From Candidatus Bathyarchaeia archaeon (GTDB lineage Bacteria > Hydrogenedentota > Hydrogenedentia > Hydrogenedentales > SLHB01): DNA of 64,000 nt. The notes beneath the pieces are model-generated. The model had not been told where the DNA came from. It did no database searches and worked only from the letters and a program-made list of their open reading frames with translations. The stretch is taken from contig DATKVG010000043.1 of NCBI GenBank assembly GCA_035530195.1, positions 1,375 through 65,374 of the forward strand, written 5' to 3'. The position numbers and the translations under genes are program-made. Shown here in pieces: positions 4,936 through 49,942 of this stretch (positions within the stretch are counted from its first letter, which is position 1; every line of letters begins with the position of its first letter).

Positions 4936-6519
4936 ATGCCATGTTGTTCTCTGTTCAACCCGATGGGCAGGCTCTGCGGGCTCGTTTTTGTCTTTTCCAC
5001 CATGGTGGTTGCACAGGGGCCGGTTGTTGCGCCGTTTGAGGTGACGGACTGGTCGACGTCGGCGGGCAAGATCGATGAACTCGTCCTGGTGCGCCTCGAA
5101 CAGAGCGGCATCAAGCCCGCCAGGCCGTGTTCGGACGAGGTTTTCCTGCGGCGCGTCTACCTCGACATGACCGGTACCCTGCCCCAACCGGCTGAGCTGC
5201 AAGCGTTTATGCGGGACAACCAACCGGGCAAACGCGCCGCACTTATCGAGTTGCTCTTCAAACGCGACGAATTCGCCGAATATTGGGCGCTGAAATGGTG
5301 CGATCTCCTTAGGGTCAAGGCCGAATTCCCAATCAACCTCTGGCCGAACGCCGTCCAGGCGTACCACCGTTGGATCCGCGACGCGCTCCGATCGAACATG
5401 CCTTACGACCAGTTTGTGCGCGAACTGCTGACATCGAGCGGCAGCAACTTTCGGGTGCCGCCGGTCAATTTTTATCGGGCGATCCAGGGCAGGCAGCCGG
5501 GCGAACTGGCGGCGGCCGCCGCGTTGACGTTTATGGGTGCGCGCATCGGCGGATGGCCAAAGGCCGATCAGGACAACCTGGCGCTGTTCTTCTCGAAGGT
5601 TGCATACAAAAGCACCGCCGAGTGGAAAGAAGAGATTGTCTACATGAAGCCGGACGCGGTTGAACCGCTCGACGTCACGTTTCCGGACGGGGTGCAGGTG
5701 GTTGTCGCGCCGGATCAAGACCCGCGGAAGGTGTTTGCGGCGTGGCTTGTCGCGCGGGACAATCCCTGGTTTGCGCGCAACATCGTCAACCGGGTTTGGT
5801 CGTGGCTGATGGGGAGGGGCATCATCCACGAGGCCGACGACATCCGGCCGGACAACCTGGCGTCGAACCCGGAACTGCTCGAGTATCTCGAGCGCGAATT
5901 GCTGAATGCCAATTATGACCTGCGTCACATGTACCGGCTGATTCTGAACTCGAGGACGTACCAGCAGTCGTCGATTCCGCGCACGGACAGCGCCGACGCC
6001 GAACCGCTGTTTGCCTGCTACCCGGTAAGGCGGCTCGACGCGGAAGTCCTGATCGATGCGTTGTGCTGGATTACGGGGACCCGCGAGGGCTATCAGAGCC
6101 CGATCCCCGAGCCGTTCACGTTCATCCCGGACTACCAGCGGTCGGTCGCGCTCGCAGACGGCAGCATCACGAGCCCGTTCCTCGAGATGTTCGGGCGGCC
6201 GCCGCGCGATACGGGGCTCGAATCGGAGCGGCTTAACCAGCCCACCGACGCGCAGCGGCTCCACCTCCTCAACTCGAGCAACATCCAGCGCAGAATTCAA
6301 AACAGTTGGCGGATCAAGAACCTCTTTCGAAGCGCGAACAAGAAACCCGGCGCCGCTATCATAAGGCTTTACGAGACGATCCTTACCCGGAAACCGACCG
6401 ATTCCGAACTCCAGACGGTCAAAGAATATGTGCAGACAGCCGGGCTGCAACCCAAGCAGGCGGCGGAAGACCTCGCCTGGGCCCTGATAAATACCAAGGA
6501 ATTCCTTTATAGGCATTGA
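4936..6519 (+). CDS. DUF1549/DUF1553 (PSD1-type) domain protein with signal peptide
   Basis: FLRRVYLDMTGTLPQPAELQAFMRD...KRAALIELLFKRDEFAEYWALKWCDLLRV matches the DUF1549 pattern. YPVRRLDAEVLIDALCWITG and FGRPPRDTGLESER match the DUF1553 pattern. Confidence 0.8.
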   Translation: MPCCSLFNPMGRLCGLVFVFSTMVVAQGPVVAPFEVTDWSTSAGKIDELVLVRLEQSGIKPARPCSDEVFLRRVYLDMTGTLPQPAELQAFMRDNQPGKRAALIELLFKRDEFAEYWALKWCDLLRVKAEFPINLWPNAVQAYHRWIRDALRSNMPYDQFVRELLTSSGSNFRVPPVNFYRAIQGRQPGELAAAAALTFMGARIGGWPKADQDNLALFFSKVAYKSTAEWKEEIVYMKPDAVEPLDVTFPDGVQVVVAPDQDPRKVFAAWLVARDNPWFARNIVNRVWSWLMGRGIIHEADDIRPDNLASNPELLEYLERELLNANYDLRHMYRLILNSRTYQQSSIPRTDSADAEPLFACYPVRRLDAEVLIDALCWITGTREGYQSPIPEPFTFIPDYQRSVALADGSITSPFLEMFGRPPRDTGLESERLNQPTDAQRLHLLNSSNIQRRIQNSWRIKNLFRSANKKPGAAIIRLYETILTRKPTDSELQTVKEYVQTAGLQPKQAAEDLAWALINTKEFLYRH

Positions 6520-6550
6520 GATCGGACGGATCCGACTGATCGGACGGATA
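6520..6550 (+). repeat. 3.3 x 9-bp tandem repeat GATCSGACK in an intercistronic leader
   Basis: gatcggacg / gatccgact / gatcggacg / gataag, located between the stop at 6519 and the RBS at 6561. Confidence 0.8.
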
Positions 6551-15509: not shown

Positions 15510-15580
15510 CCCACTACTCCAGTTTGCCCGTTACGATGGGAACCATACAGGAAAATGGCGAGGGAAGGCAATGGGCTGCC

Positions 15581-15625
15581 TGGACACTGTGGACATGGTG
15601 GACATAGTGGACGGAGTGGACACGG
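15581..15625 (-). repeat. 5 x 9-bp exact-period tandem array, NNNN-GTCCA on the sense (minus) strand
   Basis: The plus strand reads tggacactg tggacatgg tggacatag tggacggag tggacacgg, with GGAC at 15582, 15591, 15600, 15609 and 15618. Confidence 0.9.
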
Positions 15626-15628
15626 CGT

Positions 15629-17476
15629 TCAGTATTCTTTGCTCTCGTCCTGCAAGATAGCTTGGTATTGTGTTTGAAGATCGGCGGGGAATGCCGCGTT
15701 GTTATGGAGCAGTATCAGCGTGCCGACCTTTATGTCGCCGGTTTCGACCGTTGCGCGGTTGCCGCGGATTTTGAACGGCACGTCGCGAACGCCGCCTGGC
15801 TCGATCGCAACCGCACACTTCGGATCGATCCACGCCGGAAGCGCAAACTCAATCCGCACGTTCTCGCGCAACTTGAACGGATACGCTTCCGGGTGGATTT
15901 CATAATCCAGATTGGTGATGCACAAGATGGCCGTGTCCCACGAGGCAAGCGTGGCGACGTCGATCTTGTCGGGGGCTTTGACGCGCGCATCGTAAGGCTC
16001 GGAGCCCAGGAAACTGGCGCGCGCGAGACGCATCACTCTTCCCCACCCCTGCATGGCCTGGCGCGTGTCTTGAAACTTCTCGCCGACCTTGTGGTCGTAG
16101 TTGAACCAGATGATGCCTTTGGCGCCGCGGCCGAGGTTGAGCAGGAGTTGCGCGGCGAGTTCGTCCGGCGTGGGGACCGGCCGCCTGGGCCGCTGGTCCC
16201 AATCGGCGATCGCCTGCGACCACACCCAAATCGGTTTGGGTTCGGACGCGGCCTTGAGGTCTTCGGTATAGATGGCGGTCTCTTCCAGCCGGGTGCCGTA
16301 CGGATGCGGCCACTTGCTGCTGCTGGGCGCCGTCACCGAGTAGTGGTCCATGCATGGGATGTCGCAGATGCTCGCATACTCGAAAAATTTCACATTCCGG
16401 CACAGCGTGATAAACGTGGGCTTGGTGCGGTCGTACTGGCGGACGGTGTCATCGACGAACAGCATGATGTTCGGCTCGATGGACCAGTCGGGCTCGTCGC
16501 GGACCATCCAGGTCCTTAAGGCGGGATGGCCGCTGAGGCTGCGGACACTGTCGACGTTGACGGGCATGCCCGTGAAGGCGATCGTGCGGAACCCGTACCG
16601 CGGCACGGCCTGGCTGTAGAACTCGTTGTCGGCGGTGCCGCCCTCGACGACCGTGTCCACGTGCAGGCGCCGCAAAAGTTGATACGTTTCGGGCCTGGCG
16701 GTCCACACACCGATGGGGAAGTCGTCTTCGAATGCGCGCCGGTGGGCATAGACGCTCCTGGTCTCGCCACCCGAGACGTAATTCAGCCGCACCACAACGT
16801 ACTCCGACGGCTGGAGCGGTTCTTTGAGCCTGAGGCGCGCGATTGAGTTCGAGCCCGCGTCAAGTTTTTGATCCGCCCATAGGACTTCTTCGGCGGGATG
16901 GCGCATGACGGCCACCGTTTCAAGCCGCACGTCTTTGTCGCCGCCGTTGCGCACATGCACCTCGACGTCGCGCATCCCGGCCATGACGCGGATGAAGGCA
17001 ATCTGCATTGGGCTCTCGACCAGATCCGTCTTTGTGCCGCCTACCGGCCGCCATGTCTCACGGTCCACCCAGGAGAACGAGAACGGTTTGCCGGGCCCGA
17101 ACTCGGGGCTGACGGCGTTGATCTCGAGGATGCCCGACTCGCCCGGATCGAGGCTCGTATTCCACGCCCGGTGCCACGCCAGCGAACCGCCAAGCAACCA
17201 GTGGCTCTCGTCTTCACCGTTGCCGCGCCAGAACGCCAGCCGCACCGGCTTGTCGGACACGTTCGTGTAGTAGACGTGGACGAGCCCGCCCTGGTTGGGC
17301 CGCTCGTTCTGCGGCTCGACGATGTCGGTGGTGTTGCAGCGCGCGGCGCGGTATCCGACGTAGTCGATCCGGACCCGGTTGCCGCCGGCTTGAAGCGTCT
17401 GACTGAATGCGGCGCCCGCAGTGAGCAGGCAAAACAGAAACGGCACGAGATGCGAATTGACAAGTCTCCGGCGCAT
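15629..17476 (-). CDS. Secreted hypothetical protein, possible TIM-barrel glycoside hydrolase
   Basis: The ATG is preceded by AGGAGG and opens a signal peptide (MRRRLVNSHLVPFLFCLLTAGAAFSQ). Codon usage is coherent over 615 aa. The function is inferred only from the operon context of a transporter and a hydrolase. Confidence 0.5.
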   Translation of the reverse strand: MRRRLVNSHLVPFLFCLLTAGAAFSQTLQAGGNRVRIDYVGYRAARCNTTDIVEPQNERPNQGGLVHVYYTNVSDKPVRLAFWRGNGEDESHWLLGGSLAWHRAWNTSLDPGESGILEINAVSPEFGPGKPFSFSWVDRETWRPVGGTKTDLVESPMQIAFIRVMAGMRDVEVHVRNGGDKDVRLETVAVMRHPAEEVLWADQKLDAGSNSIARLRLKEPLQPSEYVVVRLNYVSGGETRSVYAHRRAFEDDFPIGVWTARPETYQLLRRLHVDTVVEGGTADNEFYSQAVPRYGFRTIAFTGMPVNVDSVRSLSGHPALRTWMVRDEPDWSIEPNIMLFVDDTVRQYDRTKPTFITLCRNVKFFEYASICDIPCMDHYSVTAPSSSKWPHPYGTRLEETAIYTEDLKAASEPKPIWVWSQAIADWDQRPRRPVPTPDELAAQLLLNLGRGAKGIIWFNYDHKVGEKFQDTRQAMQGWGRVMRLARASFLGSEPYDARVKAPDKIDVATLASWDTAILCITNLDYEIHPEAYPFKLRENVRIEFALPAWIDPKCAVAIEPGGVRDVPFKIRGNRATVETGDIKVGTLILLHNNAAFPADLQTQYQAILQDESKEY

Positions 17477-37361: not shown

Positions 37362-40532
<3,171 letters not shown>

Positions 40533-40540
40533 ATGTATCG

Positions 40541-40567
40541 GTCAGATCCGTCGGATCCGTCGGATCA
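40541..40567 (+). repeat. 3 x 9-bp tandem repeat GTCRGATCC in a 5' leader
   Basis: gtcagatcc gtcggatcc gtcggatca, ending 3 nt before the GGAGGA RBS of the acyl-CoA dehydrogenase gene. It is the reverse-complement family of the 6520 array. Confidence 0.8.
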
Positions 40568-40580
40568 TTTGGAGGATGCC

Positions 40581-41780
40581 ATGGATTTTTCAATACCGGA
40601 AAAGCTTCAGGATTTGCTGAACCGCGCCCGCGAGTTTGTGGAAACCGAGCTATACCCGCTCGAACCGCATTTTCTCCAGCAGGGTTTTAACGCCGTCGAG
40701 CCCGAGTTGCAGGAGAAGCGGCGCAAGGTGAAACAGCTCGGGTTGTGGCTTCCGCAGATCGCGAAAGAACACGGCGGTCTTGGCCTCAACCTCGTCGAGC
40801 ACGGCCTGTTCAGCGCCGAACTCGGGAAGAGTCCCGTAGGCCACTACGCGTTCAACTGCCAGGCGCCCGACGCCGGAAACATGGAAATACTCATCCAGTA
40901 TGCCAACGTCGAGCAAAAGAAAAAATATCTCGAACCCCTGCTGGCCGGTGAAATCCGAAGTTGTTTCGCCATGACCGAACCCGATTTCCCCGGCTCGAAT
41001 CCCGTCTGGATGGGCACCACCGCCGTGAAAGACGGCGACTATTACGTCATCAACGGCCGCAAATGGTACGCGAGCGGCGGCGAGGGCGCGGCGTTTGCCG
41101 TTACCATGGCCGTCACCAATCCCGACGCGCCACCCCACGAACGCGCCAGCCAGATCCTCGTGCCTGCCGACACGCCCGGCTTCATCCTCGAGACCGCAAC
41201 GCCCTTCATGGGCGCGCGCGGCGAAGGGTGGGCCAGCCACGCCGAGATCCGGTATGAAAACTGCCGCGTGCCACGCGAAAACCTCCTCGGGCCTGAAGGC
41301 GGCGGCTTCCGGCTTGCGCAGGAACGGCTCGGACCCGGCCGAATCCACCATTGCATGCGGTGGATCGGCGTGTCCGAGCGCGCGTTCGACCTCATGTGCC
41401 GCAGGGCCATCGAACGTAAAATCACGCCCGACCGCCCCCTGGCGTTCCAGCAGTTTGTACAGGGGTGGATCGCCGAGAGCCGGGCCGAAATCGACGCCGC
41501 ACGGCTCGCGGTGCTCCACGCGGCATGGGTCATGGACCGCGAAGGCTCGAAAGGCGCCCGCGACCAAGTCTCGCTCATCAAGTTCAACGTCGCAAACACC
41601 ATGATGCGCGTGCTTGACCGGGCCATCCAGGTCCACGGTGGCCTCGGCTTCTCTGACTACACGCCGCTCGCACTGTTTTACAGAAACGAGCGCGCCGGCA
41701 GGGTCTACGACGGCGCCGACGAAGTCCACAAAATCTCCGCCGCTAAACGCATCCTGAAAAAATACGCCGGATTGGCTTGA
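40581..41780 (+). CDS. Acyl-CoA dehydrogenase family protein
   Basis: The ATG at 40581 is preceded by GGAGGA. CFAMTEPDFPGSNP, YVINGRKWYASG and the C-terminal VHGGLGFSDYTPLALFYRNERAGRVYDGADEVH are ACAD hallmarks. Confidence 0.85.
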   Translation: MDFSIPEKLQDLLNRAREFVETELYPLEPHFLQQGFNAVEPELQEKRRKVKQLGLWLPQIAKEHGGLGLNLVEHGLFSAELGKSPVGHYAFNCQAPDAGNMEILIQYANVEQKKKYLEPLLAGEIRSCFAMTEPDFPGSNPVWMGTTAVKDGDYYVINGRKWYASGGEGAAFAVTMAVTNPDAPPHERASQILVPADTPGFILETATPFMGARGEGWASHAEIRYENCRVPRENLLGPEGGGFRLAQERLGPGRIHHCMRWIGVSERAFDLMCRRAIERKITPDRPLAFQQFVQGWIAESRAEIDAARLAVLHAAWVMDREGSKGARDQVSLIKFNVANTMMRVLDRAIQVHGGLGFSDYTPLALFYRNERAGRVYDGADEVHKISAAKRILKKYAGLA

Positions 41781-41911: not shown

Positions 41912-41929
41912 GTGATATCCGGGCGACTG

Positions 41930-42988
41930 ATGCAGCACCTTATTGACAAGGCGCGGCCCGTGCGGGCCGGCGAAGAACTGGACGAGCCGCGCCTCGCGGC
42001 CTACCTCACCGACGCCCTCCCCGGCCTCGTCGGCCCCATCTCCGTTGAACAATTCCCCAGCGGTTTTTCCAACCTGACCTATCTTGTCCGCGCCGGCGAT
42101 CGCGATCTCGTCTTGCGCAGGCCGCCCGTCGGCAGCAAGGTCAAAGCGGCCCACGACATGGGCCGCGAGTTCCGCGTGCTCAGCGCGCTTCACCCCGTGT
42201 ATTCCGCCGCACCGCGGCCGCTCGCCTATTGCACCGACCCCGGCGTGATCGGCGCGCCGTTTTACGTGATGGAACGGATCAAGGGCGTGATCCTGCGCGG
42301 GGAAAAGCCGGTGGATTTCTCTTGCCCGCCGGCTATCGTCCGCCAATGTTGCGAGTCATTCGTGGACAACTTTGTCAGGCTCCACCAGATTGACTATGAG
42401 GCGATCGGCCTTGGCGACATGCGCCGGGAAGGCTGGTTTGTCCAACGCCAGGTGAACGGTTGGGTCGATCGGTACCACGGGTCGCAGACGGATAACATAC
42501 CCGCCATCGATCAGACCGCTGATTACTTGAAGAACAACTGCCCGCAGGATGTGGGCGCCGTGCTCATCCACAATGATTATAAGTTTGACAACATCGTGCT
42601 CGACCCCGACGACCTCACCAGAATCATCGGCGTGCTTGATTGGGAAATGTGCACGATCGGTGACCCGCTGATGGATCTCGGCGTTATGCTGTGCTATTGG
42701 AACGAGCCGGGTGATCCCTCGCTGGGGGTCTGTTTCCTCACCCACGAACCCGGCTGTATGAAGCGACGGGAAGTTGCCCAAGCCTACGCCGAAAAGACGG
42801 GCAGGGACATCTCAAACCTTGGGTTCTACTACGTGTTCGGCCTGTTCAAACTCGCCGTCATCGCCCAGCAGATCTACTACAGGTACAAACAGGGCCTTAC
42901 CAAAGACGAACGGTTTGCCCCCCTCATCTACGTCGTCGGCACGCTCGGCCAGATGGCCTGCGGCATCATTGATGGCGGGAAGGTTTAG
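41930..42988 (+). CDS. APH-like phosphotransferase (kinase) family protein
   Basis: FPSGFSNLTYLV...LVLRRPP at the N-terminus. HNDYKFDNIVL is the catalytic-loop context and VLDWEMCTIGDPLMD is the DxD-type context. Confidence 0.8.
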   Translation: MQHLIDKARPVRAGEELDEPRLAAYLTDALPGLVGPISVEQFPSGFSNLTYLVRAGDRDLVLRRPPVGSKVKAAHDMGREFRVLSALHPVYSAAPRPLAYCTDPGVIGAPFYVMERIKGVILRGEKPVDFSCPPAIVRQCCESFVDNFVRLHQIDYEAIGLGDMRREGWFVQRQVNGWVDRYHGSQTDNIPAIDQTADYLKNNCPQDVGAVLIHNDYKFDNIVLDPDDLTRIIGVLDWEMCTIGDPLMDLGVMLCYWNEPGDPSLGVCFLTHEPGCMKRREVAQAYAEKTGRDISNLGFYYVFGLFKLAVIAQQIYYRYKQGLTKDERFAPLIYVVGTLGQMACGIIDGGKV

Positions 42989-43054: not shown

Positions 43055-43111
43055 GCACGCGCCTTCTTAGGCACGCGCCTTCTTAGGCGCACGGCTTCTT
43101 AGCCGCCTTAG
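43055..43111. repeat. 16-bp tandem direct repeats (2 exact, 1 degenerate, plus a partial unit)
   Basis: gcacgcgccttcttag x2 (43055-43086), gcgcacggcttcttag (43087-43102), then ccgccttag. The partial unit contains the pspC-like gene's stop codon. Confidence 0.85.
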
Positions 43112-44856: not shown

Positions 44857-47604
44857 ATGGCTCCTGACGCACACTTGTTGGAACGGTGGGTACACGACCG
44901 GGACGCGGACGCGTTCGCGGAACTGGTTGCCCGCTACTCGGGCCTCGTATACGGCACGTGCCGGCGCATCCTCGGCGATCCAACCGAGGCCGAGGACGTG
45001 GCGCAGGAAGCTTTTATCGAACTGGCGACGCGCGGCCGCGCCATTACCACCTCCATCAGTTCCTGGTTGCACACCGTCGCCACCCACCGCGCATTGAACC
45101 GCATTCGTAGCAACAAACGGCGCACGTTGCGTGAGCGACAATATCAACTCGAACAAGAATCTACCGGTGAGGCCGGTTGGGAAGAGATCTGGCGGTACGT
45201 CGACCAAGCCATCGCCGCACTGCCGGAGAAATATCGCGAGCCGATCGTCCTGCGATTCATTGACGGCCGGACGCAGGAATTCATCGCCCGCGAACTCGAC
45301 ATGCCGCCCGCCACGGTCCGATTCCGCCTGGCGCGCGGCGTGGACGAGATTCGCAACACGCTGAGAAGCAAAGGGGTCAGCGTGTCGGTGGTTGTGTTGG
45401 GTGCCGCGCTCGCTGGAATGGAATCGGGCGCGGCGCCCGCCACATTGACCGCCGCCCTGGGCCGGCTCGCCCTGTCCGGCCTGACGACACAACCGGCCGC
45501 GCTTGGGGCCGGAAAACTCGCCCTGATAGGAGGGGTTGCCATGACAACAAAAAAGGCCGTTGTGGTCGCTTGTGCAGTGCTCGTGATTCTCGGGTTGGGC
45601 GGCATTATGTTGTACAGAACGCAAAAACCGCCACAATCCCCTCGAGTGCAACCCGTCGCAGCCGCGCCAATCGACAAAAACCAGCCGGCTGGCGCCGCGG
45701 CTGCCCCTGAATCCGCCGTGCCCGACGCTGTAACGCCGCCCCCGCCTGAAACCGCTCCAAAAGAAGAGCCGCCCAAGCCCGTTATACTCCCGGCTGCCGT
45801 AGCGGGGCTGGTGTCCACGATGGCTGACGAACCCATGGCGGGCGCGTCAGTCTATTTGGAGGTGCTGGAAGGCGGGGAGGACCTGAATGTCGCAAAAACT
45901 TACTCGACAACGACCGGCGCGGACGGCCGATACCGTATCGACGGCATCGACACGCTTGGCACGGGCCGCGCCGAGGCGTCGGTTTACGCCAGCGCGCCGG
46001 GATTCCTCATGGCGAAACTGCGCGGGCTCAAGGTCAAGAGCGGCGACGTTGCCGAAGCTGATCTGCGCCTGAAAGAAGCCCAGTACGTCGTGGCGGGGAT
46101 GGTCGTGGCGCAAAACCGCCAGCCACTGCCCGACGCCTCGGTGGAGCTGCAGTATTACGGCTACGACGCCGAGGGACTCGAGACAACCGCCGCCTCCGGC
46201 ATGACCACCGGCAATATTGGCGATCCCAAGTTCGTGTTCGCGCTTACCGACCCGAACGGCAACTTCGAGATCGCCATTCCGGCTCAAGGTCTCTGCGATT
46301 TCACCGTCCGAAAAGACGGGTACGGCCCAGGATTTTTTCCTCAAATCCCGACCGGCACACGCGACGCCGTGTTCGTGTTGCGCGCGCCCGGCGCCATCGC
46401 CGGCCACGTGAAAAACGCCGACGGCATGCCCGCCGCAGGCGTCAAGGTCCAAGTCATGGGTGCGGGTTTTCCGGGCGGGCTGGCGCCGTATCCGGTATGG
46501 GTGCAGCCGCTGTTGCTGAAAACGGTTTGGGCACGTTCCGCGGAGGACGGTTCATACCAGGCGGACGGGCTTGGCGAGGAATACTGGTATCGCGTGGCGG
46601 TTCCCGTGCCGAGTTTGTTGGAAGAGGAGAAACTGCTGGCGCAGGTGTTGGGAGTAAATGTGCAGGCCGGCAAAACCACTACCGGCGTCGACCTCGTCCT
46701 CCCGCCGGAGGGCAAAGAGACCGCCATCTTCGGCACGGTGACCGATATCGCCTCCGGCGACCCGGTTTATCCTATGGCCGTGGACGTCCTGCCGGTCGAC
46801 CGCAATCCGTTGAGCGGTCTGGCCTCCCCCGTCTACTCTTCCGTATTTCCAGACGGATCCTTTCGGATTGTTCTCAACATTACGGCCGAATGCGACGTGA
46901 TCTGCCGCCACCGATACGAAACCGAAGGCGGCGGTGTCTGGTGGGATCCCGAAGGCCAGACGGTCAGAATAAAACCGTACGAGGAAAAAGAGGTCAACTT
47001 CTCCGTCGCCGCCCCGTTCAATGTCGAGCTCGAGTACGTCGACGAGGCCGGGGCGCCATTGCCGGGCATCATGACGGCCATGCGGCGCGCTGAAGGCCGC
47101 GGCGGATGCGGTGGCAGCCTCATCTCCGACCCCGACGGCCGCGCCACCATGCACGGACTCCCGCCGGGAATCCCGCTGGTTGCAATGGGCTGGCAAGAGG
47201 TCGGTGGGAGGAACCTCATTACGATCGGCTGCAGCGAACCATTCACCGGCAGTGCCGGCCAGACTGTGTCCGGCGTGCGGGTCGTGTGCCGGCCCGTCAC
47301 AGGCGTGGGCGGTGTCAGCGGGGCCCTTGCGTGGCCCGACGGCATCCCCGTCGCACAGACGATGGTGTACTGCAGGACGATGTGGGCCGGCTCCCAAATC
47401 GAGGAGAGCGTTGCAATCTCCGCCGCCGATGGATCTTTCACCAGCGGCAGCTTCCTGCCCGAAGGCGTCTACCCCGAGTTGGCCGTCGGCTTTGAGGACG
47501 ATCAAGGCCGCATCTACGGCGCCATCGTCAACGACGTCACCATTTCCAACGGCCAAACTACACCCCTTGGCACACTAACCGTGGCACAAGCACCGCCTGA
47601 ATAA
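44857..47604 (+). CDS. ECF (sigma-70 group 4) sigma factor fused to a transmembrane segment and a ~660-aa extracytoplasmic region of CarboxypepD_reg-like repeats
   Basis: Sigma region 2 (FAELVARYSGLVYGTCRRILGDPTEAEDVAQEAF) and region 4 (LPEKYREPIVLRFIDGRTQEFIARELDMPPATVRFRLARG) are both present. A TM helix spans aa ~234-253, followed by a Pro-rich linker. The remainder carries repeated ...G.V...G.P..GA.V......T..DG.Y...GL modules. Confidence 0.8.
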   Translation: MAPDAHLLERWVHDRDADAFAELVARYSGLVYGTCRRILGDPTEAEDVAQEAFIELATRGRAITTSISSWLHTVATHRALNRIRSNKRRTLRERQYQLEQESTGEAGWEEIWRYVDQAIAALPEKYREPIVLRFIDGRTQEFIARELDMPPATVRFRLARGVDEIRNTLRSKGVSVSVVVLGAALAGMESGAAPATLTAALGRLALSGLTTQPAALGAGKLALIGGVAMTTKKAVVVACAVLVILGLGGIMLYRTQKPPQSPRVQPVAAAPIDKNQPAGAAAAPESAVPDAVTPPPPETAPKEEPPKPVILPAAVAGLVSTMADEPMAGASVYLEVLEGGEDLNVAKTYSTTTGADGRYRIDGIDTLGTGRAEASVYASAPGFLMAKLRGLKVKSGDVAEADLRLKEAQYVVAGMVVAQNRQPLPDASVELQYYGYDAEGLETTAASGMTTGNIGDPKFVFALTDPNGNFEIAIPAQGLCDFTVRKDGYGPGFFPQIPTGTRDAVFVLRAPGAIAGHVKNADGMPAAGVKVQVMGAGFPGGLAPYPVWVQPLLLKTVWARSAEDGSYQADGLGEEYWYRVAVPVPSLLEEEKLLAQVLGVNVQAGKTTTGVDLVLPPEGKETAIFGTVTDIASGDPVYPMAVDVLPVDRNPLSGLASPVYSSVFPDGSFRIVLNITAECDVICRHRYETEGGGVWWDPEGQTVRIKPYEEKEVNFSVAAPFNVELEYVDEAGAPLPGIMTAMRRAEGRGGCGGSLISDPDGRATMHGLPPGIPLVAMGWQEVGGRNLITIGCSEPFTGSAGQTVSGVRVVCRPVTGVGGVSGALAWPDGIPVAQTMVYCRTMWAGSQIEESVAISAADGSFTSGSFLPEGVYPELAVGFEDDQGRIYGAIVNDVTISNGQTTPLGTLTVAQAPPE

Positions 47605-47653: not shown

Positions 47654-47718
47654 CTCTGTCCATGCTGTCCACTGCTGTCCACAATGTCCACCGCGTCCAC
47701 AACGTCCATGTCCGTCCC
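47654..47718 (+). repeat. 6-8 unit ~9-bp-period tandem array, NNNN-GTCCA on the sense (plus) strand
   Basis: ctctgtcca tgctgtcca ctgctgtcca caatgtcca ccgcgtcca caacgtcca tgtcc gtcc. GTCC occurs at 47658, 47667, 47677, 47686, 47695 and 47704, with degenerate copies at 47710 and 47714. Confidence 0.9.
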
Positions 47719-47781: not shown

Positions 47782-49686
47782 ATGCCCTTCAAGCTTTGCT
47801 TCCTCAGCGCTCTCCTCTGTGCGAGGCTCTGCCAGGCCGAAAACATAACTTCCTGGTCCTCGCTGATCGACACCACGCGCGCGCAGCCTTCCCTTACTGC
47901 CGCATGCGACGAACTCGTCGCCCAAGCCCGGAAAGCCGTCGCCGAACCCATCGTGCGCCGTGCCCGTTCGCTGGCCGAGGTCGGCCAGAACCGGACGTGG
48001 CTCGATGGCAGGGCCAACGCGCTTGAAGACGAGATCCGGGAGCAATTCGCGCTGGCAATGTCGGATTTCGGGGCGTGCAGCTTGCTGGCGAAGGAACTGC
48101 CGATGCTGGCCGCGGCGTACCGCCTCACCGGCGAGAAGCTCTTCAAAGACCACGTGATCGCACAGCTCGACGAGATGGCCTCCTGGTCGCCGCTCCAGCG
48201 GCCCGGTTGGACACTCTACGCCCCCGGCCACCGCCTGCCCCCCGACGGCAAAGACGGCAACTGGCTTGCCACAGGCTGCGGCATCCGCGCGCTCGGCGAC
48301 ACGCTCGAGTTGCTCCCTTCTGACGCGCTCGACGATCAACTCCGCGCCAGACTGAACACCCTGCTCGAAACCGAGATCGCCGGCGTTGTCGACGACTGGC
48401 TGGCCCGCCGGCCATGGTTCGTCCGCTCGAACAACCCCGTCACCAACCAGTGGGTGCTGCCGACCGAAGGCCTCGTCCGCGCCTGTCTCGTCCTCGGCGT
48501 TGATACCCACCGCGACGCCTACGAGCTCGGCGTGAAAAACCTGTTGGCGGCGCTCGACGCCCACGGGCCGAACGGCGAGTTCGAGGAAGGGTTCGGCTAC
48601 GCCTCGTTCACCGTTACGTCGCTGCTGCATGCCGCCCACGCCATGGCCGCTGCGGGCGATCGGCGCGCAATCGACCACCCGTTTCTCCGGCACTTCCCCA
48701 CGTGGCTGGTGCACCACTTCCAGCCCGGCAACATGGTGATCAACTGTTTCGACGCGGGCGGCGCGTTCGACGCGGCCAAATCGACCCGGCCGTTGTTGTC
48801 GCTGCTGGCCGTCTGCACCAACGATCCCGTTGCCCGTTGGGCGCTCGCGTTCCAGGCCGGCGGCCCGTCCAACGACCTCGGCGGCCTCGCCGCCCGTGGC
48901 CTCGAACCAGTGGGCGCCGATGCCACCCCGCCGCTCTTCGCCGCCTACGAACGCGCCGCGCGTGTCAACTGGCGCGACAGTTGGGACGACAACGCCACCG
49001 GCGTCTGGGTGCGCGGCGGCCATCCGCTCGACCAGCACGACCACCAGGACCGCGGCCACGTCAATTTCATCTGGAAAGGCAAACCCATTCTTATCGAGGC
49101 CGGCACGCCTTCCTACCACCACCCGCTGATGATGACGCAATATACGCCCGGTATTGGCCACAACGTCCTCCAACTCGGCGACGCCGCGCCCGCCGATTCT
49201 GCCAAAGCCGGCGAGCTCGTGTGGATGCCCGGCTGGCAAAAGGCCGGCGGCGTCGCACCCATCAGCATCAACCGGCTCGACGCTTCCGGCGGCGACGTCA
49301 CCGTCGACGCCACGAAATGCTATGACAGGCTACAACTGTGGAAACGGCGTGTGCAGTGGGATGCAAAGCATCTGGCCGTAGTTGATGAGGTCCAACTCGC
49401 ACCCGATACGGCCGACATTATTATGTTCCGCTGGCACCTGGGCACAAGTGAAGATGCGATTATCAAGGAAGAAGCGGACTGCTACACGCTGGACTTCAAC
49501 GGCCTCCGCCTCTCAATTGAACCGTCCGCGCCCATCGAGGTTTCCCAAATCAAGCTGCCCGACCACACCCTCGAAGGCCATACGGGCGATGAAGACCCCG
49601 GCAACGTCCACACCTGCATTGTCGTGCGGTCGCGCGAAAAGACCCACGCCTTAACGTGCTCTCTACAGGCGGCGCCGGCGGAATAA
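47782..49686 (+). CDS. Secreted heparinase II/III-like (polysaccharide lyase-like) protein
   Basis: The ATG at 47782 opens the signal peptide MPFKLCFLSALLCARLCQA. DQHDHQDRGHVNFIWKGKPILIEAGTPSY fits the heparinase II/III family pattern. Confidence 0.6.
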   Translation: MPFKLCFLSALLCARLCQAENITSWSSLIDTTRAQPSLTAACDELVAQARKAVAEPIVRRARSLAEVGQNRTWLDGRANALEDEIREQFALAMSDFGACSLLAKELPMLAAAYRLTGEKLFKDHVIAQLDEMASWSPLQRPGWTLYAPGHRLPPDGKDGNWLATGCGIRALGDTLELLPSDALDDQLRARLNTLLETEIAGVVDDWLARRPWFVRSNNPVTNQWVLPTEGLVRACLVLGVDTHRDAYELGVKNLLAALDAHGPNGEFEEGFGYASFTVTSLLHAAHAMAAAGDRRAIDHPFLRHFPTWLVHHFQPGNMVINCFDAGGAFDAAKSTRPLLSLLAVCTNDPVARWALAFQAGGPSNDLGGLAARGLEPVGADATPPLFAAYERAARVNWRDSWDDNATGVWVRGGHPLDQHDHQDRGHVNFIWKGKPILIEAGTPSYHHPLMMTQYTPGIGHNVLQLGDAAPADSAKAGELVWMPGWQKAGGVAPISINRLDASGGDVTVDATKCYDRLQLWKRRVQWDAKHLAVVDEVQLAPDTADIIMFRWHLGTSEDAIIKEEADCYTLDFNGLRLSIEPSAPIEVSQIKLPDHTLEGHTGDEDPGNVHTCIVVRSREKTHALTCSLQAAPAE

Positions 49687-49864: not shown

Positions 49865-49942
49865 GTCCCTATCGTCTAGCCCGGCCTAGGACACCGCCCT
49901 TTCACGGCGGCGACACGAGTTCGAATCTCGTTGGGGACGCCA
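49865..49942 (+). tRNA. tRNA-Glu: tRNA-Glu (anticodon UUC), CCA encoded
   Basis: Cloverleaf traced by hand. Acceptor stem GTCCCTA/TGGGGAC. Anticodon arm CCGCC-CTTTCAC-GGCGG. T arm ACGAG-TTCGAAT-CTCGT. Discriminator G followed by CCA. The anticodon arm sequence matches bacterial tRNA-Glu closely. Confidence 0.9.

Follow-up and report, generated by a model that had tools for sequence, protein, structure and literature searches.

A GTCCAC nonamer array as one copy of a dispersed repeat family with a cognate gene for a predicted four-helix-bundle protein

Short tandem motifs with fixed spacers, located between a stop codon and the start codon of the next gene, raise the question of whether they regulate that gene or belong to a system of their own. 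Such an array precedes a transporter gene in the 64,000-nt stretch of DNA analysed here (referred to as the window). The initial annotation described five head-to-tail 9-bp units with a GTCCA core, noted a second array with the same period, sense orientation and distance to the start codon, and proposed a site for an oligomeric RNA-binding attenuation protein of the TRAP or HutP type or for a multimeric DNA binder, with a slipped-strand, phase-variable spacer as the alternative. The observation proved to be real, as both arrays are present in the sequence, whereas the interpretation drawn from it is only partly supported. In the following sections we describe the arrays, their distribution in the genome and its relatives, and the gene family with which they are associated.

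The arrays and their immediate surroundings

The following features of the window are relevant here:
15571..15625, minus strand: array 1, five GTCCAC/GTCCAG units (cores at 15621-15580) plus a degenerate sixth unit, GCCCAT (15576-15571), between the stop of a 615-aa gene (15629) and the ATG of the MFS_2/GPH transporter gene (15509).
47658..47715, plus strand: array 2, six units (GTCCAT, four GTCCAC, GTCCAT) with one 10-nt step and an abutting GTCCGT after the last unit, between an ECF-sigma/TM/repeat gene (stop at 47604) and a heparinase II/III-like gene (ATG at 47782).
6520..6549, minus strand: a sister-family array of GTCSGATC-type 9-nt units (x3.3), immediately after the stop of the gene at 4963-6519; about 70 arrays of this family occur in the genome.
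40537..40566, plus strand: a second sister-family array (GTCGGATCC x3.3), in the 48-nt gap between the co-directional genes 37362-40532 and 40581-41780.

Array 1 reads GTCCACtcc GTCCACtat GTCCACcat GTCCACagt GTCCAGgca on the minus strand, starts 7 nt after the TGA at 15631-15629 (3 nt in the phasing of the initial annotation) and ends about 70 nt before the transporter ATG. Array 2 lies 53 nt after the upstream stop codon and about 65 nt before the next ATG. Both arrays, as well as the two sister-family arrays, are found by Tandem Repeats Finder. The conserved core is the hexamer GTCCAC rather than GTCCA, with core positions 94-99% invariant, and it is followed by a 3-nt spacer which is biased to N-R-T and occurs in 32 different versions. 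The gene upstream of array 1, previously described as GH-like, has only a sub-threshold GH42 match (19.4 bits against a cut-off of 21), and the gene downstream of array 2 encodes a heparinase II/III-like lyase. In an Rfam search of the window, the only match at gathering threshold is a tRNA at 49865-49939.

At these two loci some properties are compatible with a leader element. Both arrays are in sense orientation, 63-71 nt upstream of a start codon, their sense RNA is unstructured and thus accessible, folding no better than shuffled sequences (z -0.40 and +0.09), and the layout of core plus spacer resembles TRAP sites. The antisense strand reaches z about -3, through G-U-rich self-pairing. 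However, promoter and terminator scans around both arrays revealed no terminator or antiterminator and no terminator-like hairpin between the arrays and the start codons, and the single promoter-like hit consists of the TGGACA units themselves on the antisense strand.

The phase-variation alternative is contradicted. Although the array is a tandem repeat upstream of a gene and unit number differs between species, the units are not identical, the array does not lie between promoter hexamers, and arrays 1 and 2 are letter-identical in 4 and 5 independent assemblies, respectively, from different samples. We consider this reading highly improbable, as far as assemblies can show.

A dispersed family with little regard to orientation or gene function

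A relaxed scan of the whole genome identified 37 GTCCAC arrays of at least 3 units, while the same scan found 0 in the reversed genome and 0 for each of five permuted cores, which excludes chance. Depending on the count, this genome holds about 37-45 copies of the family, about 210 GTCC-core arrays of period 9 or 10, 181 intergenic heptamer arrays, and about 400 short tandem arrays in all. About 90-95% of the GTCC-core arrays are intergenic in a genome that is 87% coding. Five units is the mode only for the GTCCAC family in this genome, as other families peak at four units and relatives have arrays of 8-25 units.

Across the 210 GTCC-core arrays, orientation relative to transcription is nearly random, with 67 sense, 45 antisense (a slight sense excess, p=0.047) and 64 in convergent or divergent gaps. 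The arrays lie closer to the upstream stop codon (median 19 nt) than to the next start codon (median 70 nt), being stop-proximal in 80 cases and start-proximal in 32 (p=7e-6). They are denser in convergent gaps, and divergent (promoter) gaps are depleted (chi-square p=0.0014). Flanking gene functions are unrelated. The shared sense orientation and distance to the start codon therefore hold for the two window arrays only and not for the family. Moreover, orthologues of the transporter and the lyase genes in other genera lack the array; for the lyase gene this was seen in the relatives G003 and G030. In the congener G001 the transporter leader keeps only 2 units. On this evidence the TRAP/HutP-like attenuation model is not supported, being largely refuted by orientation and placement, and we regard it as very unlikely. 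TRAP (GAG/UAG x 9-11) and HutP (UAG x 3 + 3) sites are strand-specific leader elements coupled to a terminator/antiterminator, whereas the present arrays occur in both orientations, mostly nearer the upstream stop codon, with no terminator, and number in the hundreds. The reading of a short conserved core by one subunit of a ring per repeat nevertheless remains the best physical analogy for how the array could be bound.

Absence of conservation in close relatives had been named beforehand as a sign against function, yet array 1 and 7 of 9 other arrays are retained in G001. There, only the first and last units of array 1 are present at the same site (2 units instead of 6), an exact 36-nt (4-unit) difference. 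Between the genome studied here (G000) and G001, the cores are 157/162 identical (97%), the spacers 30/60 (50%) and the flanks about 80%, so that the probability of the core conservation at 80% identity is 2e-10. Spacers of inverted pairs are mostly not complementary (7/12 at the gene on contig C103 described below, 3/12 at the G001 gene, 0-2/3 at contig C120), and it is thus the cores, not hairpins, that are kept. A hairpin or RNase III-stem idea was for this reason dropped for the nonamers, although it is not excluded for the heptamer arrays, whose arms are nearly perfect complements. No clean filled-versus-empty site with a target duplication was found, as the two arrays absent from G001 (contigs C125 and C153) sit in spacers that have been wholly replaced by other repeats.

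A plain microsatellite or minisatellite produced by replication slippage, with neither protein partner nor function, would account for the differences of whole units between congeners and for the long runs of identical units in relatives. In this genome, however, adjacent units share a spacer no more often than chance (7 of 79 against 6.4% expected) although the cores are nearly invariant, the same hexamer recurs in unrelated loci and in many phyla, and the arrays show a strong, type-specific co-occurrence with one gene family (see below). We consider this explanation very unlikely.

Clusters of DnaA boxes that titrate the replication initiator, like datA, DARS or the Bacillus DnaA-box clusters, were our first lead, since TGTCCACA resembles the high-GC DnaA box TTGTCCACA and the extended unit T-GTCCAC-A-R matches 7-8 of the 9 box positions. 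This idea was rejected. There is no GTCCAC cluster in the intergenic DNA around either dnaA-like gene and no match to TT[AG]TCCACA within 5 kb, the few GTCCAC/TGTGGACA words there lie inside genes, and isolated TGTCCACA words are no commoner than reversed controls (86 (35+51) against 67 (32+35)). Furthermore, 31 of 61 relatives have no GTCCAC array, although DnaA is generally regarded as universal in bacteria, and sister families with unrelated cores (GTCCGATC, GTCCTAT, GTCCGTG, heptamers) share the same architecture.

Association with TIGR04258/PF05635 genes

The arrays track a gene. On contig C103 of this genome (31681-32289), a TIGR04258/PF05635 gene for a small basic protein, predicted to form a four-helix bundle with the TIGR04258 'suffix' helix, is bracketed by inverted arrays of the same unit: an antisense array (GTGGACx5-6) ends at its start codon, and a sense array (GTCCACx5) lies in frame just before the suffix helix. 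The three TIGR04258 genes of the genome, named by contig, each carry their own unit, and reversed-unit controls give 0-5 arrays:
C103: unit GTCCAC, 45 arrays elsewhere in the genome.
C211: unit GTCCCAT / GTCCTAT, 58-68 arrays elsewhere.
C5: unit GTCCGTG+N3, 31 arrays elsewhere.
All 7 canonical PF05635 genes are likewise bracketed by inverted heptamer arrays of their own unit, and for 5 of them the unit is also dispersed elsewhere above its reversed-unit control. By contrast, the largest family of this genome, GTCCGATC (about 70 arrays), has no cognate gene in this 87%-complete assembly. A six-frame HMM search of the genome found only the three known genes, which speaks against dispersed arrays being relics of decayed gene copies.

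Among 61 relatives, all 20 GTCCAC-rich genomes have a TIGR04258 gene and 0 of 18 gene-less genomes are rich (p=2e-4). A gene of the matching, GTCCAC-flanked 'ST' subtype is present in 12 of 16 rich genomes and in 2 of 28 others (p=6e-6), while GTCCTAT arrays have a different genome distribution that follows SY-type genes. These Fisher tests overstate significance, as the relatives are phylogenetically non-independent, and there are exceptions, namely the relatives G054, G008, G042 and G046; in G054 (96% complete, 103 hits) and G008 (100% complete, 15 hits) GTCCAC arrays occur but no ST-type gene was found. Copy number ranges from 0 to 403, and some genomes (G056, G017) have the gene with only its own flanking arrays. 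In other phyla, genomes with a non-coding GTCCACx5 array carry the gene in 15 of 19 cases, and genomes whose array is a coding repeat in 9 of 30 (p=0.001). Among cultured hosts, Oligosphaera ethanolica DSM 24202 has both arrays and three genes.

The protein family comprises at least 8000 clusters, about 68% identical across phyla. The C103 gene product (204 aa) matches TIGR04258, TIGR02436 and PF05635 only, and has a pI of 10.2. The protein has a conserved GxxRxxxSxxxNxxE face. A sequence search of the PDB found nothing, but the AlphaFold2 model (pLDDT 82) has 2GSC and 2RLD as its best fold matches in Foldseek (probability 1.0). 2GSC is a ring of five four-helix bundles, and PF05635 resembles the DGR accessory protein Avd (PMC10053308). 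Some subfamilies add a C-terminal four-cysteine motif (CPxCG...WGC...C), read here from the motif alone as a putative zinc ribbon; such ribbons bind single-stranded DNA.

A putative gene-plus-repeat system

We propose, with a probability of roughly 0.6, that array 1 is one copy of a dispersed family which is the signature repeat of the C103 gene, and that the array is a binding platform for a ring-forming, basic, Avd/S23p-like protein in a REP/RAYT-like gene-plus-repeat system. In this view, the protein would assemble into a ring of about five four-helix bundles, like its solved relatives 2GSC and 2RLD and like Avd, and would bind one repeat unit per subunit, reading the invariant hexamer and tolerating the 3-nt spacer, probably on single-stranded nucleic acid. 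Arrays away from the gene would be non-autonomous copies or solo ends which persist where they do little harm, just after stop codons and away from promoters. The array would not be a dedicated regulator of the transporter or lyase gene, and any effect on the neighbours would be incidental. The analysis itself demonstrates the repeat family, its placement, the co-occurrence of gene and repeat, the matching of subtypes and the constraint on the core, whereas direct binding, its stoichiometry and strandedness, and the mobility and spread of the arrays are inferred. The protein has no recognisable transposase or nuclease fold that would explain such spread, and strong core conservation in every copy is more typical of functional sites than of dead insertions.

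The latter point favors an alternative in which the same arrays, bound by the same protein or by another factor, serve the cell as mRNA 3'-end protectors, insulators between adjacent genes or nucleoid-organising sites, as has been proposed for REP/BIME elements. Every examined copy keeps its cores across about 15-20% nucleotide divergence, the arrays are preferentially placed just after stop codons and in convergent gaps with a slight sense excess, and both window arrays are stable in the population. On the other hand, half of the relatives lack GTCCAC arrays, arrays do not follow orthologous genes between genera, some genomes have only the arrays flanking the gene, and both orientations are used. 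Host benefit thus remains possible but unlikely.

Several known systems share parts of this organization. REP/BIME/REPIN elements with their RAYT genes (the 'REPtron') are likewise short repeats dispersed in tens to hundreds of copies in intergenic DNA, often just 3' of genes, singly or as inverted pairs, with one cognate gene per repeat family that is itself flanked by inverted copies, several gene-repeat pairs per genome and a patchy phylogenetic distribution. However, the unit here is a tandem array of a 6-nt core plus a 3-nt spacer rather than a hairpin-forming palindrome, the flanked gene belongs to PF05635/TIGR04258 rather than encoding an HUH Y1 (IS200/IS605-like) transposase, and one array lies inside its reading frame. 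Cyanobacterial STRR heptamers and the TAACTGA direct repeats of Beggiatoaceae, Cyanobacteria and Bacteroidetes (PMC4679880) are also head-to-tail units repeated 2-6 times, overwhelmingly intergenic, in hundreds per genome, with whole-unit indels between strains, no known function and a patchy distribution across phyla that suggests horizontal spread; the present arrays share these traits. They differ in having a period of 9 (6+3) with a variable spacer rather than a fully specified heptamer, although this genome has heptamer arrays as well, which do each bracket a PF05635 gene. TAACTGA repeats in 'Maribeggiatoa' are mostly forward-oriented and abut start codons, and no cognate gene has been reported for STRR or TAACTGA. 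The 23S rRNA intervening sequences that encode S23p (PF05635) and the DGR protein Avd share the fold and family and the bracketing of the gene by inverted repeats. The family forms a basic ring of five four-helix bundles, and Avd works on nucleic acid together with a reverse transcriptase (PMC10053308, PMC4990558). The gene described here is not inside rRNA, its flanking repeats are tandem arrays which are also dispersed genome-wide, and no reverse transcriptase or template/variable repeat pair was noted next to it, in the absence of a dedicated search of the neighbours. Literature searches on TIGR04258, PF05635, STRR and nonamer repeats found no paper that links the gene family to tandem arrays, within the literature that could be searched.

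For annotation, these findings are a warning against reading such arrays as operators or attenuators of the neighbouring gene. Dispersed short tandem repeats such as STRR and TAACTGA repeats have no known origin or function, and the S23p/PF05635 four-helix-bundle genes, including those inside 23S rRNA intervening sequences, have no known role, two puzzles which date from the early 1990s. The locus described here is an ordinary member of a system that ties the two together, as at least eight repeat families in one genome each match the repeats that bracket one such gene, and as the presence of a repeat family across relatives follows the presence of the matching gene subtype. More tentatively, and less likely than not, proteins of the whole PF05635 superfamily, including the S23p ORFs and the relatives of Avd, would be sequence-specific readers of short tandem arrays, one ring subunit binding one repeat unit, with canonical members paired with heptamers and 'suffix' members with nonamers or decamers. 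Gene plus arrays would then form a very widespread, horizontally moving system without a recognisable transposase, which would explain the origin of STRR and TAACTGA-type repeats, known for about 35 years, and would give the S23p family its first function. If the binding by the roughly 200-aa protein is specific, the system would offer a new modular way of recognising nucleic acid, with a 6-7 nt core per subunit and different cores in different subfamilies, and it might also reveal a new way for repeats to spread.

Sequence and genomic dispersal of the arrays

The two short tandem arrays described in the initial annotation are present in the sequence, and the observation itself therefore holds. 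Their arrangement and that of the other repeats in the window are as follows:

Array 1, minus strand: GTCCACtcc GTCCACtat GTCCACcat GTCCACagt GTCCAGgca, followed by a degenerate GCCCAT; it starts 7 nt after the TGA stop (15631-15629) of a 615-aa gene and ends about 70 nt before the ATG (15509) of an MFS_2/GPH transporter gene.
Array 2, plus strand, 47658-47715: six units, with one step of 10 nt and a GTCCGT abutting the last unit; it lies between an ECF-sigma fusion gene (stop at 47604) and a heparinase II/III-like gene (ATG at 47782).
6520-6549 and 40537-40566: two arrays of a sister family (GTCSGATC+N, which contains GATC/GGATCC), in short gaps between co-directional genes; this is the largest family in the genome (about 70 arrays).
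43055-43102: three tandem copies of a 16-bp unit (GCACGCGCCTTCTTAG), unrelated to the nonamer family, between the stop of the gene at 41912-42988 and a small minus-strand ORF.

Arrays 1 and 2 are both reported by Tandem Repeats Finder. The conserved core is the hexamer GTCCAC, while the three spacer bases are biased to N-R-T but take 32 different values. Array 2 also lies in frame with the downstream ORF when this is counted from an ATG at 47662, giving an ORF of 674 aa. However, the signal-peptide start at 47782 is the one called in five independent assemblies (634 aa), so the in-frame reading looks coincidental.

The arrays are far beyond chance and are not limited to two copies. The genome (hereafter G000) comprises 4.77 Mb in 232 contigs, with 61% G+C and a completeness of 87%. 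A relaxed scan identified 37 GTCCAC+N3 arrays of 3-7 units, with a mode of 5, whereas the same scan found none in the reversed genome and none for five permuted cores. Tandem Repeats Finder, applied to the whole genome, showed a large excess of period-9 arrays, and about 210 non-overlapping arrays of period 9 or 10 have a GTCC-anchored unit. These fall into several families, namely GTCCGATC (about 70 arrays, the largest family in the genome), GTCCAC (about 37), GTCCTAT, GTCCCAW, GTCCYTT and the 10-nt GTCCGTG+N3. They are about 90-95% intergenic in a genome that is 87% coding according to a codon-usage gene caller written for this analysis. A further 181 intergenic arrays have a period of 7.

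Other dispersed repeats lie next to some of the arrays (C197:6900-7020, C20:47200-47420 and C125:11230-11300 in G000, and many contigs of its congener, G001). One is a GC-rich element of about 110 bp containing GGTGGGGTCGMGCTCC...GAGCKCGACCCCACC palindromes, with at least 15 copies in G001, and another is an element of about 60 bp, 'AAAAGCGGGGACAGACACGG...', with at least 8 copies. Some intergenic spots hold 8-mer arrays (GATTGTCG, AAGTGCGA) where the congener holds a nonamer array.

Placement and conservation of the arrays

The initial annotation compared the arrays with the binding architecture of oligomeric RNA-binding attenuation proteins and of multimeric DNA binders, and considered a phase-variable spacer as an alternative. 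The placement of the whole family, for which gene calls were taken from our own simple caller, does not fit a leader element.

Location of the 210 GTCC-core arrays
Between co-directional genes, sense: 67
Between co-directional genes, antisense: 45
Convergent gaps: 33
Divergent gaps: 31
Inside called genes: 18
Contig edges (no gene on one side): 16

The sense excess is marginal (p=0.047), and for the 37 GTCCAC arrays alone, sense and antisense are equal (8 and 8). In co-directional gaps, the median distance is 19 nt from the upstream stop codon and 70 nt to the next start, with 80 arrays nearer the stop and 32 nearer the start (p=7e-6). Per kilobase, divergent (promoter-only) gaps are depleted about two-fold (chi-square p=0.0014). 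The roughly 70-nt distance to the start codon, to which the initial annotation drew attention, is therefore the family-wide consequence of arrays avoiding promoter and ribosome-binding regions. Furthermore, no terminator-like structure lies between either window array and its start codon, and the sense RNA of both arrays is unstructured (z of -0.40 and +0.09). Leader attenuation is thus largely refuted by orientation and placement. A few GTCCAC arrays (C110:27634-27666, C122:20365-20406, C21:15323-15346, C37:426-467 and C214:2146-2187) fall inside ORFs predicted by the gene caller, four of them antisense and one sense.

In the congener G001, the transporter is 89% identical at the protein level, and its leader keeps the array site but with only two units, GTCCACTCC and GTCCATTGC, which makes it exactly 36 nt, or four units, shorter. 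The 615-aa gene upstream of array 1 (15629-17476, minus strand), which has only a sub-threshold GH42 match, is entirely absent from G001, where the ceramidase-like gene is followed directly by the transporter, and the boundary of this indel on the transporter side falls at the array. More distant transporter orthologues have no array upstream. Array 2 has no orthologous locus in G001, and in the relatives G003 and G030 the orthologue of the lyase gene has no array upstream, although both genomes are rich in GTCCAC arrays.

Nine other G000 arrays were located in G001, of which seven are retained in place, with a changed unit number or changed spacers, while two are absent and their spacers are occupied by other repeat types. 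Unit by unit, the cores are 157/162 identical (97%), the spacers 30/60 (50%) and the flanks about 80%, and at 80% identity this degree of core conservation has P = 2e-10. In G000, adjacent units do not share spacers more often than chance (7 of 79), so recent slippage does not explain the perfect cores. A plain microsatellite fits poorly with this core/spacer pattern and with the gene association described below. Array 1 is letter-identical in 4 independent assemblies and array 2 in 5, from different samples, which argues against phase variation, and this reading was rejected. An interpretation of the arrays as DnaA-box clusters was likewise rejected.

Four-helix-bundle genes bracketed by matching repeats

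A profile search with PF05635 matched 12 places in the genome, and the three weakest matches are TIGR04258 'four helix bundle suffix' proteins. Each of these three genes has an antisense array ending at its start codon and a sense array in frame just before the C-terminal suffix helix, and each uses its own unit.

Units of the three TIGR04258 genes of G000, named by contig, and places elsewhere in the genome with arrays of that unit (reversed-unit controls give 0-5)
C103: GTCCAC; 45
C211: GTCCCAT / GTCCTAT; 58-68
C5: GTCCGTG+N3; 31

The C5 gene (41158-41798, minus strand) is split into two frames exactly at its internal array, and is either a pseudogene or a frameshift caused by a change in repeat length; an inverted pair, CACGGACx4 / GTCCGTGx5, lies just upstream.

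All seven canonical PF05635 genes (S23p-type, about 120 aa) are likewise bracketed by inverted heptamer arrays. They lie at:

C114:3496-3969
C143:18501-18955
C19:7835-8399
C27:16689-17197
C172:26184-26905
C55:52312-52811
C118:22722-23315

Each has its own unit, these being TTCATCC, GCAATCT, ATTTGTA, TTCGCAC, CCTACAG, CCAAACG and CACCGGC. For five of these units, arrays are also dispersed elsewhere above their reversed-unit control (19, 10, 17, 5 and 4 arrays, against 0-1 in the controls), whereas for CCAAACG and CACCGGC the controls are as high. This looks like the STRR phenomenon with a cognate gene. One genome therefore holds at least eight gene-repeat pairs.

Co-occurrence was examined in 61 relatives belonging to one order. 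A GTCCACx4 pattern gives 0 to 403 hits per genome, with none in the controls, and 30 genomes have at least one hit, while TIGR04258 is present in 43 genomes. All 20 genomes with at least 5 hits have the gene, and none of the 18 gene-less genomes has more than 3 hits (Fisher p=2e-4, although the relatives are not independent samples). Most genomes are MAGs, repeats break assemblies, and many TIGR04258 genes sit at contig ends. To determine whether subtypes match, 60 gene loci were retrieved and their flanking repeats and linker peptides were read. A gene flanked by GTGGAC/GTCCAC arrays, which encode 'STxSTx' in the linker, is present in 12 of 16 GTCCAC-rich genomes and in 2 of 28 others (p=6e-6), and the two others (G056 and G017) have only the gene's own arrays. 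As exceptions, G054 and G008 have arrays but no ST-type gene was found, and the GTCCGATC family of G000 has no cognate TIGR04258 gene in this incomplete assembly. In some relatives (G051:C1:3042762-3043716, G051:C1:3660549-3660769, and the G057:C21 and G057:C16 loci), the arrays flanking TIGR04258 genes have expanded to 11-25 nearly identical units (GACCCATAA, GTCCCTGTW, GTCCACYCY), and at the G057 GTCCAC-type gene both flanking arrays are in the same orientation.

A second repeat family behaves independently. GTCCTAT arrays have a different distribution, with 55 of them and no GTCCAC arrays in G006, the reverse in G003, G032 and G057, and again none in gene-less genomes. SY-type genes flanked by GTCCTAT or GTCCCAT are carried by G006, G028, G036 and G000. 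The protein subfamilies track the core.

Protein subfamilies and array cores
ST: GTCCAC
SY: GTCCYAT
TD/HG: GTCCGTG
SD/PTD, often with a C-terminal four-cysteine motif read as a zinc ribbon: GTCGGAC / GATCCGAC

Outside the order, GTCCACx5 arrays occur in at least a dozen phyla, and of 49 such genomes, 24 have TIGR04258. In the gene-less genomes, 21 of 25 arrays are identical-unit repeats inside long ORFs, that is, ordinary coding repeats of high-GC genomes, whereas among genomes whose array is non-coding, 15 of 19 have the gene (p=0.001). Three of 120 array loci directly abut a TIGR04258 gene start, in the same antisense geometry.

The protein and a putative role of the arrays

The ST-type protein family has at least 8000 clusters at 90% identity and is about 68% identical across Deltaproteobacteria, Acidobacteria, NC10, Planctomycetota and PVC bacteria, and all members keep the STxST stretch before the suffix helix. 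The AlphaFold2 model (pLDDT 82, pTM 0.77) predicts a helical bundle in which the array-encoded residues 135-148 are disordered. Its best structural matches are Xcc0516 (2GSC) and BT_0352 (2RLD, 'S23 ribosomal protein family'), with a probability of 1.0 and a TM-score of 0.62-0.67 on the target. The protein is basic, with a pI of 10.2. PF05635 genes are known to sit as insertions inside operons such as cas loci, and to share a GxxRxxxSxxxNxxE motif (PMC3936711), which is present here as ARSGVQNIAEG.

The closest known systems are REP/RAYT, which follow the same logic with a different repeat and a different protein, and the STRR/TAACTGA repeats, which are the same kind of DNA but have no known partner (PMC4679880). 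In the literature searched, we found no paper that links PF05635/TIGR04258 to tandem arrays. With respect to how the arrays spread, the protein shows no transposase or nuclease fold, and no clean empty site was found. The possibility that the arrays are binding sites of benefit to the host is not excluded, and the constraint on the cores favors this reading.

Our analysis demonstrates a dispersed repeat family with a placement of the kind expected for tolerated insertions, the conservation of its cores but not of its spacers, and a type-specific co-occurrence with a gene that carries the same repeats at its ends. What this system does, on the other hand, is an inference from these data. The interpretation in the initial annotation is only partly supported, as attenuation and phase variation are not sustained while recognition of the units by an oligomer is retained as an inference. 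In this view, the ring-forming, basic protein binds the arrays with one subunit per unit. The bound form is probably single-stranded nucleic acid, as the period changes with core length (6+3, 7+3, heptamers) and not with the DNA helical repeat, and as some subfamilies also carry a C-terminal four-cysteine motif of a kind that binds single-stranded DNA. The dispersed arrays would then be non-autonomous parts of this gene-and-repeat system.
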